64,000 nucleotides of DNA, taken from contig CAYFMJ010000001.1 in assembly GCA_964344235.1 (NCBI GenBank), positions 224,001-288,000 of the forward strand, in the 5' to 3' direction. The notes beneath the pieces are model-generated. The model was not told the DNA's origin. It did no database searches and saw only the letters and a list, made by a program, of their open reading frames with translations. Positions 44,257 through 53,625 of this stretch are shown piece after piece. The stretch is from an uncultured Methanosarcinales archaeon (GTDB taxonomy: Archaea; Nanobdellota; Nanobdellia; Woesearchaeales; GW2011-AR9). Both the position numbers and the translations under genes were made by a program. Positions within the stretch are counted from its first letter, which is position 1, and every line of letters begins with the position of its first letter.

Positions 44257-45726
44257 ATGTCCTTAACTAACCTTATTAGTATTTTACGTGTTCTGACCCT
44301 TCCAGCGTTGCTATACTTCTTAGGAAATGATTCGTTATTCTCAACGTTCTGGGCGTTGGTTGTTTTTTTTATTGCAGTCTTAACGGCAGTGGTTGATGAT
44401 ATTCTATTCTATAAACGAGGAAGATCGAAAGTAGGTTCGTTTCTTGATCCATTAGCGGATAAAATTGTCATTGTAGGGATGTTGTTATACTTCGTTTTAC
44501 AAGGAATGTTTGAAGCAGTTTATTTAGTCGTCTTCATTTTACGTGACGTTATTGTTGGTGTTACTCGTTTTGTGGCGAATAGAGATGGCATTATGGTTCG
44601 GGGGAGAAGGTTGTATGTGTTGCTCTTAACATACTCTCTGTTTGCAGTCATTGCGGGGTTGTTGTTGGAACATTTCTTCACATTTGAGGGTTTCACCGTT
44701 GGCGGGAGATTAATCTTTACGCAAACTATTATTCTCTTTTTCACATTTGTGGCGCTTATTGTTGCGTTTATTTCAGTGCTTCATCATTTATTGAGATACA
44801 GCCGAGGTGCTATGCGGCGGAGGCATTACAAAAGAGTTGCAAATAGAAATATGGTGGTGTTGGCGAATAAGCGATCTCGCGGATACCACGATGGGTACAG
44901 AAGAAGATTATTGAAACTGTTTGCCAGACGGCGGAACGCCCCGGTGATGTTTTTTCCCCATACAAGAAATATGTTCAAAGGGTTACGTAACAAAGTAGCC
45001 GGGAAGAATCGTATAGTTATTGCAGGTGGTGACGGATCATTTGAGAGTGCATTGAATTACAAACCGTTTCACAAGAAGACATTGGGATTCTTTCCATTAG
45101 GTGCCGGGAATGCATTCTATTCCCATTTCTACAAGGGTAAACGGTTCGAATATTTACGGTCGAGGTTCCAGTTTCATGAACAAGAATTAGACGTATTAGA
45201 AATGACTTGGGATAAAGGGAAGAGACAGACGTTATTTCTAAATATTGGTGGTGACGCAGAAGTTATGCACCATAGTGTGAAAAGAACACAACATGGATTG
45301 AGAGATTATGTAAAAGCCTGCTGGAAAGTTATAGTGGATGTTCCAGTACAGTATGATTTGAATTGTAGTGTCGATGGGAAAAAGTATAACTGGAAGAACT
45401 CAGTAAGTATGGTATTAGCTAAAGTCCCCTATTTAGGTTTTGGTATACGTTCCATACCCGGTGAAGTTGATTTAGGTGATGGGCAGGTTTATGGTGCTGC
45501 AGTTGTGAATACTCATTCTTCATTTTTTAACAAAGGGATAAGAATTTGGGCTTTATTGTTAGGGATGTTTAACATTGATAAATCACCATTTGTTTTATTA
45601 CAGGGTAAGAAAATTGTTATCAAAAGTAAGCACCCATTTCCAATTCAAGCAGGAGGGGAATTTATTGGGTATAGCAGGTCTCTTTCCGTGAAAGTTGTGA
45701 GGAAGCAGAAAGTATTGATGATTTGA
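44257..45726 (+). CDS. Fusion: CDP-alcohol phosphatidyltransferase-like domain plus diacylglycerol-kinase-family domain
   Basis: TNLISILR and GSFLDPLADK at the N-terminus; GGDGS and PLGAGNAF at the C-terminus. Confidence 0.8.
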   Translation: MSLTNLISILRVLTLPALLYFLGNDSLFSTFWALVVFFIAVLTAVVDDILFYKRGRSKVGSFLDPLADKIVIVGMLLYFVLQGMFEAVYLVVFILRDVIVGVTRFVANRDGIMVRGRRLYVLLLTYSLFAVIAGLLLEHFFTFEGFTVGGRLIFTQTIILFFTFVALIVAFISVLHHLLRYSRGAMRRRHYKRVANRNMVVLANKRSRGYHDGYRRRLLKLFARRRNAPVMFFPHTRNMFKGLRNKVAGKNRIVIAGGDGSFESALNYKPFHKKTLGFFPLGAGNAFYSHFYKGKRFEYLRSRFQFHEQELDVLEMTWDKGKRQTLFLNIGGDAEVMHHSVKRTQHGLRDYVKACWKVIVDVPVQYDLNCSVDGKKYNWKNSVSMVLAKVPYLGFGIRSIPGEVDLGDGQVYGAAVVNTHSSFFNKGIRIWALLLGMFNIDKSPFVLLQGKKIVIKSKHPFPIQAGGEFIGYSRSLSVKVVRKQKVLMI

Positions 45727-45728
45727 AC

Positions 45729-45767
45729 CACTAGCCACTGGACAAGTGCCAATAGGGGTTATAAATC
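45729..45767 (+). promoter_or_regulatory. CACTAGCCACTGGACAA-N14-TATAAATC upstream element, copy 1
   Basis: Identical 17-mer and identical spacing at 53625-53587 on the minus strand. Confidence 0.75.
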
Positions 45768-45811: not shown

Positions 45812-46546
45812 ATGAAACTTAATAAAATGGAATGTGAAGATTTAGCCTACTGGGTTGGTGTTGCTCAAACTGATGGGTACCATAAAAAATACTTGCCAAA
45901 AAACCAAAATAATGTAACTCATTCCATGGTTCTACATGTGGGGTTCTGTTCAATTCCAATGCTTATTAAATTTAGGGAAATCTCAAGAAGCTTATTCCAA
46001 ATAAAAGGATCGACATATAGTGTTAACGGAAATAATTCCCTCGTCTTTAAATTTGGAATCACTAGGCTTCTTAATTTATTTAATGAACTTGACATTATTT
46101 TCTCCGACCCTCCACAACCACCTTTGTGGGTTATGAAGAATTCAACTTTCTTTGGGGCTTACTTGGCAGGGATTATTGACGGTGATGGGGATGTAAGGAT
46201 AAAACGACCGAGGTATCCTCAATGTGCAATAAGGATTAACTCAGGTTCTCCAGCAAACCATTTGTTAAGTGCAATCAAATCCAAACTTGGGATTGGGGCT
46301 TCACTTTCAACAAATCACCGTGATACGGTCTATCAAGGGAGGAGGATCATTGGACGCTCACATCGGCTCGAGTTTTATGTTTCGTCAAAGAATATTGATT
46401 TCTTTGAGCGATACGTTTTAGACCATTTAGCAATGGGGTACAAGAGGAAGAAAATTAGAGATTATGTCCAGGTCCGCAAAATCACGAAACATTTAAATAA
46501 AAAAATCTGGCTTAACGGAGCTTGCGGCGACCGTCGTATAAACTAA
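45812..46546 (+). CDS. Two-motif LAGLIDADG endonuclease-family protein
   Basis: LAYWVGVAQTDG and YLAGIIDGDG. Confidence 0.88.
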   Translation: MKLNKMECEDLAYWVGVAQTDGYHKKYLPKNQNNVTHSMVLHVGFCSIPMLIKFREISRSLFQIKGSTYSVNGNNSLVFKFGITRLLNLFNELDIIFSDPPQPPLWVMKNSTFFGAYLAGIIDGDGDVRIKRPRYPQCAIRINSGSPANHLLSAIKSKLGIGASLSTNHRDTVYQGRRIIGRSHRLEFYVSSKNIDFFERYVLDHLAMGYKRKKIRDYVQVRKITKHLNKKIWLNGACGDRRIN

Positions 46547-46640
46547 TCAACAATGTTGTTTAGATACTTTGGTTATTATTCCGGACTGTGGAATACTTTG
46601 CAGTCATCCGGGGACGCGAGTTCAATTCTCGCCGGTCGCC
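46526..46640 (+). tRNA. tRNA-His(GUG) with G-1:C73 and two BHB introns (46542-46569 at 15/16; 46592-46605 at 37/38); CCA not encoded
   Basis: Acceptor GCGACCG/CGGTCGC, T arm GCGAG-TTCAATT-CTCGC, anticodon stem CCGGA/TCCGG; removing both introns gives GTATAATGGTTA and CTGTGGA; TTTAAATA upstream. Confidence 0.85.
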
Positions 46641-46643
46641 CTC

Positions 46644-46807: not shown

Positions 46808-46904
46808 GCTTGCGGTAGTGTTAGTGGTGAGCACGCACGACTGTGATGATATTCTTTTTCTTCATAGAACTCGTGAAGCAGGAGTTCGAATCTCCTCCGC
46901 AGGC
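46808..46904 (+). tRNA. Second tRNA-His(GUG), G-1:C73, C1:G72, BHB intron 46847-46869 at 37/38; CCA not encoded
   Basis: Acceptor CTTGCGG/CCGCAGG, D stem GTGT/GCAC, anticodon stem CACGA/TCGTG, T arm AGGAG-TTCGAAT-CTCCT; CTGT pairs with intron ATAG between 3-nt bulges. Confidence 0.85.
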
Positions 46905-52688: not shown

Positions 52689-52773
52689 CTTCTCTTTTTG
52701 GGTTGTTGTTCTCTTAAACAGAATTAAAGAAATAACCATAATCTTTATAAATAGATGCGGGGGTGAATGTGAT

Positions 52774-52882
52774 GGACGGCCAGAGGGATGGAAATCACCT
52801 AGACTCGTTTCGAACCTAGAAGTTAAGGCCATTTCCGTGTTGGAGTGTACTGCATTTTGTGGGAAATCCGACAAGCTGTCCC
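52774..52882 (+). rRNA. rrf: 5S rRNA (stand-alone)
   Basis: Helix I GGACGGC/GCTGTCC; ACTCGTTTCGAAC, AGAAGTTAAG, GTACTG, GGGAAA hallmarks; TTTATAAATA at 52744-52753. Confidence 0.88.
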
Positions 52883-53572
52883 CTTATTTTTTAGTGAGAT
52901 GCTTGCTAATTTCTTCTTTAGTTCTCTGAACTGGTCTTCATTTCGCGCTGTTGCGGCATAACTTTCAATAATTAAGTTAGTAACTCTCTTTTTTCTTGGG
53001 TGTTTAAATCCAATTTTCTCCCTAAAAGCAATGAAATTCTCCTTTCCAGTTATAGATAATAGAAAGCTCTGGTCCCTTTTGCTTGATCTATGGTTTCTTA
53101 TTATTTTGTTTGACCTTATCCCCAAATTGAGTAGAACCTGCTTGACTTGAGATAGGATTTTATAGGAATTGGAGGAAAGAGTAATGTTCCTTTTCCATTC
53201 GTTAGTTTTTCTATTTAGTCTTAGGGCGGCACATCCCTCATCATCATAAAAAGTACGAAGAAACTCTCTTAACATTCTGTCCGATTCTAAGAACGCTTTA
53301 GGGATACTGATGTTGTGGCTGTTGTAACTTTGTAGATACTTTTTCAAGTGATTGACTATATGCTTGCCGTATACTGCCACATATGGTGTTCCACTGTTCA
53401 TTTTGCCTCCGGACATTCCAGGATTACCAAATTGATTTTTTATATCCAACTTAAACTCTTCAATCAGTGTAGGGCAAGTGTTGAAATACATGATTTGTCG
53501 GTCTGATAAATGGCCATCCCCGCAAATTCTCGCGACAATTCTTACTAGTTGCATCTCTTTCATCCGTAACAT
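52823..53572 (-). CDS. LAGLIDADG-family protein (intein/DOD-like type), free-standing
   Basis: IVARICGDG and FLRTFYDDEG, IPKAF, LLNLGI; no intein splicing motifs seen. Confidence 0.82.
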   Translation of the reverse strand: MLRMKEMQLVRIVARICGDGHLSDRQIMYFNTCPTLIEEFKLDIKNQFGNPGMSGGKMNSGTPYVAVYGKHIVNHLKKYLQSYNSHNISIPKAFLESDRMLREFLRTFYDDEGCAALRLNRKTNEWKRNITLSSNSYKILSQVKQVLLNLGIRSNKIIRNHRSSKRDQSFLLSITGKENFIAFREKIGFKHPRKKRVTNLIIESYAATARNEDQFRELKKKLASISLKNKGTACRISHKMQYTPTRKWP

Positions 53573-53586
53573 TTGGGGGTATACTT

Positions 53587-53625
53587 GATTTATATTTTCT
53601 ACCTATGGTTGTCCAGTGGCTAGTG
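53587..53625 (-). promoter_or_regulatory. CACTAGCCACTGGACAA-N14-TATAAATC upstream element, copy 2
   Basis: Plus strand TTGTCCAGTGGCTAGTG at 53609-53625 and GATTTATA at 53587-53594. Confidence 0.75.

Follow-up and report, generated by a model that had tools for sequence, protein, structure and literature searches.

The window, that is, the whole stretch of 64,000 nucleotides analysed here (C1:224001-288000 of genome G000, which has 1.19 Mb, 39% G+C and 96% completeness), contains two LAGLIDADG genes that run at their 3' ends into structural RNA genes and that are preceded by the same promoter arrangement (Table 1). The 17-mer CACTAGCCACTGGACAA is present in two exact copies on opposite strands, and 14 nt past each of them stands the TATA box TATAAATC; the 17-mer, the intervening spacer (box 2) and the TATA box are together called the module in what follows. 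When up to three mismatches to the 17-mer are allowed, the window yields just these two matches, whereas 0.13 are expected, and two or more matches were obtained in none of 100 shuffles. The first copy begins 2 nt past the stop codon of a CDP-alcohol phosphatidyltransferase/DAG-kinase gene. Given the distances between TATA box and start codon, a short leader is predicted for the first LAGLIDADG gene, and the mRNA of the second is probably leaderless. Both ORFs match LAGLIDADG_3, with scores for PF14528 of 55.8 bits in protein 2 and 21.7 bits in protein 1 (22.7 in the genome scan) at a cut-off of 22.5, and their mutual similarity is not detectable (BLASTP E = 1.1). Coordinates, spacing and protein comparison thus bear out the original observation that identical 17-mers lie 14 nt before a TATA box ahead of two unrelated LAGLIDADG genes.

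Table 1. Features of the window at the two LAGLIDADG loci (positions within the window).
Feature	Coordinates	Strand	Description
CDP-alcohol phosphatidyltransferase/DAG-kinase gene	44257-45726		
17-mer, copy 1	45729-45745	+	distal heptamer CACTAGC, proximal heptamer CACTGGA, then CAA; 48.5 bits
Box 2 (BRE-proximal spacer), copy 1	45746-45759	+	14 nt, GTGCCAATAGGGGT; weak match to genome consensus CCACNGGTAGANNN
TATA box, copy 1	45760-45767	+	TATAAATC; start codon 52 nt downstream
LAGLIDADG gene 1	45812-46546	+	244 aa; motifs ..VAQTDG.. and ..IIDGDG..
tRNA-His copy a, intron-containing	46526-46641	+	abuts cassette 1; boundaries set by eye against relatives
Second tRNA-His	46809-46904	+	GTG anticodon, 25-nt intron; Rfam tRNA, 42.4 bits
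5S rRNA gene	52772-52884	+	abuts cassette 2; 51.7 bits
LAGLIDADG gene 2	52823-53572	-	249 aa; motifs ..RICGDG.. and ..FYDDEG..
TATA box, copy 2	53587-53594	-	TATAAATC; ATG codons 22 and 31 nt downstream
Box 2, copy 2	53595-53608	-	CCATAGGTAGAAAA; near genome consensus
17-mer, copy 2	53609-53625	-	54.1 bits

The ORF of the first LAGLIDADG gene crosses the promoter and the 5' exon of tRNA-His copy a and ends in its first intron, and the final 62 nt of the second are antisense to the 5S rRNA gene. Both loci are empty in same-family relatives. At the second, the gap between the 5S rRNA gene and an NTP-transferase gene measures 99-198 nt in five of these relatives and 808 nt in G000, where it is occupied by the module and LAGLIDADG gene 2; at the first, the tRNA-His gene is found about 45-165 nt past the CDP-OH/DAGK gene in six of them. 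When compared with these empty sites, each inserted cassette begins at the 17-mer, and because G000 holds exactly module and ORF at both places, each cassette is essentially a module plus an ORF. The two window proteins are patchy in distribution, each having orthologues of at least 40% identity in just two of 120 sampled families. Among the ten further endonuclease loci, two have tRNAs beside them according to standard models, which miss multi-intron tRNAs. The tRNA-His copy a itself is called neither by ARAGORN nor by Rfam, and it carries an extra insertion in the D-loop region, beside the endonuclease gene, that is absent from its counterparts in relatives. The gap between the 5S rRNA and NTP-transferase genes appears as a hot spot, empty in the five relatives mentioned and holding other small ORFs in three (e.g., 91 aa in L171 and 160 aa in L174).

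The pair is not special to the two window genes, contrary to what had been supposed. A position matrix seeded on the matches to the 17-mer, and then iterated, was used for a census of the module across G000, and it recovers 25 sites at 35-62 bits with none between 10 and 35 bits; the reversed matrix, run as a control over the same genome, gives a single hit of 10 bits. All 25 sites align without gaps, so the spacing from heptamers to TATA box is fixed: 14 nt separate the 17-mer from the TATA box in every one of them, and the same spacing is kept in relatives. The module spans about 39 nt and consists of tandem heptamers of the CACTGGA type, a second box and the TATA box, with the genome consensus agc-CACTNCC-CACTNGA-CAA-CCACNGGTAGANNN-TATAAA, and conservation falls off abruptly on both sides. 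The direct repeat that had been noticed within the 17-mer is real, since across relatives it resolves to the tandem heptamers CACTGGA-CACTGGA-CA. The 39 nt hold 44 bits of information (distal heptamer, 7.7; proximal heptamer with CAA, 16.4; box 2, 10.9; TATA box, 8.9), whereas 16.5 bits suffice to specify 25 sites; this points to a composite nucleoprotein site, on which more than one protein would probably act. Roughly half of the sites have a start codon 21-29 nt past the first T of the TATA box, as in leaderless transcripts, and the remaining sites have leaders ending in the Shine-Dalgarno sequence GAGGTGAT; from these distances, the 17-mer would occupy roughly positions -58 to -42. Box 2 extends into the position of the BRE. 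A role of the motif at the RNA level has been rejected, since it sits upstream of the predicted start sites; in the corresponding Rfam search only 5S rRNA was found in the window and nothing near the orthologues.

The genes headed by the module in G000 form a coherent set. All 12 free-standing LAGLIDADG genes have it, as does an operon made of a small conserved protein gene followed by radA (Rad51 family, 270.8 bits). Other repair genes headed by the module are hef (helicase plus ERCC4), lhr, radC and the gene of a Zn-ribbon-HRDC protein; to these are added a nuclease operon (DUF4186 followed by an RNase-H-fold nuclease), two integrases of the XerC/D type, an operon ending in a yrdC-like gene, and a few further genes that are uncharacterised. 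When three LAGLIDADG Pfam models were scanned over the whole of G000, the matches comprised the module-headed ORFs and two regions inside long frames of 1461 and 1185 aa, which are read as inteins; these two intein-type copies are absent from the 25 module-headed units. As the scan finds just these matches, every detectable free-standing LAGLIDADG gene of the genome has the module. The proposal of a shared regulon site is therefore supported in a form much wider than the one put forward, with 25 units in G000 and the radA operon across the order.

Some of these units deserve a separate description. The operon at C8:1907-2847 of G000, found also in L110, L116 and L117, is a conserved module-driven unit in which two micro-ORFs precede the yrdC/Sua5-like gene; the micro-ORFs encode 39-42 aa (MVDLSTRTIRQLFEQQVR...SFDYQFSGGW) and 33-43 aa (M..KQRI..LL.KYE..). 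In the modules at C8:1907 and C1:381738 the leader is identical too, over about 30 nt as far as the Shine-Dalgarno sequence, and past it the two diverge, the former leading to the micro-ORF/yrdC operon and the latter to a 41-aa ORF and a lysine-rich basic protein of 188 aa; since both module and leader are shared, they are true duplicates. At C2:8177 (L003) the module is followed by a short ORF (MAKRGQKQ...) whose match to Lhr (C3:49010-52021) is confined to the N-terminus, and from this match the pair looks like a duplicated promoter with a 5' lhr fragment.

Conservation outside G000 has been followed mainly at the radA operon. Of 80 related genomes, 48 have a module upstream of it according to the G000 matrix, and retraining the matrix on those radA sites raises the number to at least 70, although the RadA proteins of those genomes are merely 64-84% identical. 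Across relatives the proximal CACTGGA-CA stays invariant, 14 nt ahead of the TATA box, whereas the distal heptamer is variable; in many relatives CACTGGA occurs twice, and at times both heptamers change in concert, giving CACTTGC twice, CACTGGT twice or, in G074, CACAGGA twice. In five relatives examined for the genes concerned, the module heads those of Lhr, Hef, integrases, LAGLIDADG proteins (some of them with HTH), Bro-N, Nre, a PD-(D/E)XK nuclease, a C5 methylase and YrdC, as well as the radA operon. A strict pattern (CCACTGGWCA, 16 unspecified bases, WWWWA), which would overlook variant heptamers, was run over 117 sampled genomes of Woesearchaeales and matches 72 of them, compared with none of 34 from other orders of the class, and a control pattern gives 5 hits over all 151 genomes; the 45 genomes of the order in which no copy was found have thus been scored by a pattern blind to variant heptamers. 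Box 2 is uniform within a genome and dependent on the lineage, reading for example GGACCCYCGGAAAG in G033 and GTATACAAATT in G005. This uniformity could stem partly from promoter copying rather than from selection at each site. The radA gene of G033 has the GGACCC-type box 2 in common with the other module sites of that genome. Two classes of box 2, GGACCCYCGGAAAG and AACACCCTCRAAAA, are found behind one proximal heptamer in G033, and they may mark two sub-regulons.

This distribution bears on the origin of the module. One reading takes it merely as the terminal sequence, or the portable promoter, of a self-copying mobile element, with no regulon behind it. Both window cassettes start at the 17-mer, conservation falls sharply at both ends of the module, and the modules at C8:1907 and C1:381738 have been duplicated together with their leader, all of which would be expected of such an element. 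However, in at least 70 of the 80 genomes the module stands at the orthologous radA operon despite the RadA divergence given above, and hef and lhr have it as well; neither a second end nor a target duplication nor a transposase has been found associated with it; and the genes attached to it are unrelated yet functionally coherent, so that this reading is very improbable. Of the earlier suggestion that the 17-mer is the conserved left end of a LAGLIDADG-carrying element, the position stands, as the module is outermost in the cassettes, and the nature does not, as it is a host promoter element and not an end specific to the element. In other families, the motif is found upstream of three of the four orthologues of the window endonucleases. 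In G062 the sequence upstream of the endonuclease is CCATTAGCACTGGACAT and the radA promoter has CCATTGGACACTGGACAT; in G097 a single TCACTGGACAA is found in both places; in G026 the endonuclease has CACTGGACACTGGACAT and the radA match was not found in the genome; and in G074 no motif is seen upstream of the endonuclease, the radA promoter having CACAGGA twice. Both orthologues that can be compared (G062 and G097) match the radA promoter version of their own genome, and on this sequence comparison the endonuclease cassettes carry the host's own version of the module.

The feature is real and is undescribed in the literature searched, and it is read as a promoter-proximal regulatory element that defines a regulon. 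Quite probably, it marks a recombination and repair regulon of Woesearchaeales, being the binding site of a putative factor, and endonuclease cassettes carry this site along with them. The 17-mer would be the upstream half of an archaeal promoter module of fixed geometry, in which a distal heptamer that varies is followed by the invariant proximal CACTGGA-CA, then by a 14-nt box that is specific to the lineage and extends to the BRE, and last by a near-consensus TATA box. A sequence-specific factor would dock on it, probably as an oligomer on the repeated units next to TFB and TBP, and would control in common radA, hef, lhr, radC, the HRDC protein gene, nucleases and Xer-type integrases. The free-standing LAGLIDADG homing endonuclease genes, the two of the window among them, would then be compact cassettes of module and ORF inserted beside structural RNA genes, in which the module would tie the expression of the enzyme to the host recombination machinery required to mend the breaks that it makes. 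The stronger proposition of an undescribed, order-specific regulon with a new CACTGGA-repeat factor, of which homing-endonuclease cassettes beside tRNA and rRNA genes are obligate members, has about an even chance of being right. Copy number, spacing, gene set, conservation and range within the order have been shown for the module itself, as have the insertions; that a factor binds it, that DNA damage or recombination is the trigger, and in which sense transcription is regulated are points that we infer. The signal suggested by the genes would be damage, replication stress or the cell cycle; DNA damage is taken from gene content, and a cell-cycle or recombination-competence programme fits equally well.

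The sign of regulation is read from the position of the site. Since it lies wholly upstream of BRE and TATA box, activation is somewhat favoured. An operator of the SOS kind, on which a repressor would occlude TFB and TBP until DNA damage occurs, would leave the same regulon with the opposite sign, and this we regard as unlikely. The near-consensus TATA box (8.9 bits) and the extension of box 2 into the BRE describe a core promoter that would be strong unless blocked, and the gene content resembles that of bacterial SOS regulons, which also hold integrases and mobile elements. On the other hand, the best-conserved part of the module lies 15-31 nt upstream of the TATA box, whereas characterised archaeal repressors act mostly on the BRE/TATA region or on the start site. 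Just upstream of the BRE is where the site of the activator GvpE is found (PMC2241852).

The closest architectural parallel is indeed the GvpE UAS of haloarchaeal gas-vesicle promoters, which consists of two short repeated portions directly upstream of the BRE and whose fixed distance to BRE and TATA box is essential (PMC2241852). The module likewise has two repeated portions directly upstream of the BRE at an invariant distance, an activator-type architecture, and it differs in sequence, in taxon (the UAS being known from Haloarchaea), in the genes controlled (gas-vesicle genes) and in number, with about 25 sites compared to two promoters. In terms of function, the nearest system is that of Sulfolobales, in which a DNA-damage-responsive element, ANTTTC, is associated with the Orc1-2 regulon (PMC6061795). 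In both cases a short promoter-proximal element marks an archaeal regulon related to damage or recombination; the Sulfolobales element is bound by a dedicated activating factor, whereas the factor of the module is putative, and the Sulfolobus regulon (ups pili, ced, tfb3) differs from the set formed by radA, hef, lhr and the endonucleases. The ANTTTC hexanucleotide is absent from the module consensus, and no Orc1-2-type paralogue was found in the 96%-complete G000.

With regard to the mobile genes, two other systems offer a comparison. Bacterial LexA/SOS boxes control mobile-element genes, among them integron integrases and functions of prophages or ICEs, so that selfish recombinases carry a host operator, as the Xer-type integrases and homing endonucleases here carry the module; that system differs in its bacterial transcription machinery, palindromic operator, mode of action by repression and known regulator, and no LexA-like candidate has come to light here. 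In phage T4, the seg and mob genes encode free-standing homing endonucleases; they have promoters of their own and lie beside the genes that are targeted, SegB being in the tRNA cluster, and collaborative homing belongs to the same comparison. As in the present case, they are compact cassettes of promoter and ORF between conserved genes, patchy in distribution and adjoining, for likely targets, tRNA or rRNA genes; the T4 genes belong to a phage, whereas the cassettes of G000 are cellular and are all placed under one host regulon promoter. In the literature covered, which is only part of what exists, neither promoter motifs nor regulons were found described for Woesearchaeota or for any other DPANN archaea, and the only archaeal DNA-damage regulatory network that can be cited is that of Orc1-2 in Sulfolobales (PMC6061795). 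If the stronger proposition of an order-specific regulon is true, DPANN archaea would here have their first network of the kind, and homing endonucleases would for the first time be seen to adopt a host repair regulon systematically, with selfish DNA cutting licensed only when the host RadA/Hef/Lhr machinery is switched on; such recombination-coupled expression would explain how free-standing homing endonucleases persist in genomes of 1 Mb. In practical terms, a 44-bit module of fixed geometry provides a computational handle on the whole regulon in hundreds of uncultivated genomes and a bait for finding the regulator, and it flags as candidate recombination or repair factors the small protein encoded before radA, the two micro-ORFs before yrdC and the Zn-ribbon-HRDC protein.

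As to the protein that reads the module, it had been suggested that the LAGLIDADG proteins themselves possibly do so; they would then be autoregulators of the WhiA kind, or the 17-mer would be the target that they cleave. In favour of this, 12 of the 25 sites precede LAGLIDADG genes, and three of the paralogues have HTH domains, which neither window protein has. However, the 12 paralogues are too divergent for one site (the two window proteins being without detectable similarity), and the window proteins and most paralogues retain an acidic residue in each motif (TDG/GDG and GDG/DEG in the former), so that, as far as the motifs tell, the window proteins are more likely active nucleases than regulators. 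WhiA, the LAGLIDADG-derived transcription factor of Gram-positive bacteria, has the fold in common with these proteins; it has lost its catalytic residues and is conserved clade-wide, in contrast to the patchy window proteins with their acidic residues. In addition, the module is kept at radA, hef and lhr whatever the endonuclease content of a genome, and its tandem 7-nt repeats are unlike the usual targets of LAGLIDADG enzymes, which are long, pseudo-palindromic and of about 20 bp. The paralogue combining LAGLIDADG with HTH_7, considered separately as a WhiA-like regulator and rejected, was looked for in 40 relatives, where no orthologue was found (the hits fall in long open frames and are probably inteins), and it has no WhiA match in the PDB. 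Self-binding is, on these grounds, hardly credible.

Another reading, drawn by analogy with Orc1-2 of Sulfolobales, would have the single Orc1/Cdc6 recognise the heptamers as sites of the mini-ORB kind. Its attraction lies in the sequence CCACTGGA of the proximal unit, which is identical over 8 nt to the core of the Pyrococcus ORB/mini-ORB oligonucleotides (PMC1904270), in one ORB at the origin of G000 itself, which reads TTCCACAGGAAA, and in the fact that Orc1-2 is a DNA-damage regulator in Sulfolobus (PMC6061795). Against it, six Woesearchaeal origins conserve TTCCA, GAAA and the GGGGT string and vary in the central three bases, whereas the module has no TTCC, GAAA or GGGGT and its invariant CTG falls precisely on the variable ORB positions; the ORB dyad TTCCA-N3-GAAA with GGGGT is thus missing from the module, and the common part is just the central CCACTGGA. 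Moreover, ORB and module do not co-vary in G074 or in G005, and just one Orc1/Cdc6 gene is present (one Cdc6_C hit in G000). This possibility is quite improbable, and a dedicated CACTGGA-repeat factor is preferred to it. The probable replication origin of G000 was located at C1:130514-131202 (L196:4014-4702), beside the orc1/cdc6 gene, where an AT-rich palindromic stretch lies between two inverted ORBs, one being TTTCCTGTGGAAAC with a C-string and the other TTCCATAAGAAAT with GGGGTG; ORBs of a similar kind are found beside orc1 in five relatives.

Other candidates for the factor have been considered among the proteins of G000. The genome encodes one TFB and one TBP, and an alternative TBP was discarded on account of the single TBP gene. 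The reverse complement of the module loosely resembles the mycobacterial RecA-independent promoter motif (PafBC); a PafBC-like WYL regulator was rejected, no WYL domain being found in G000. The small protein encoded before radA is kept in at least 56 of 80 genomes; at L005:1636-1893 and 56 related loci it has 80-129 aa and the signature ..PEKKFRAGAISATVW..NDLPKA.., with no match in Pfam, NCBIfam or PDB sequences. Its structural model (pLDDT 89) shows four strands followed by one helix, a topology compatible with PC4, the best fold matches being weak (Pur-alpha, E = 0.24; best Z, 4.9) and the nearest ESM-Atlas clusters unnamed and partly phage-derived. A short TFB-like gene was also discarded as a TFB3-like factor, since of 40 relatives G009 alone has it, whereas the module is widespread. 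This gene, at C1:404868-405563 (L157:865-1563), encodes 232 aa, in which a Zn-ribbon at the N-terminus is combined with just one TFIIB cyclin repeat, and adjoins a truncated integrase; as it is limited to G000 and G009 among 41 genomes, it may be a TFB-like factor of a mobile element.
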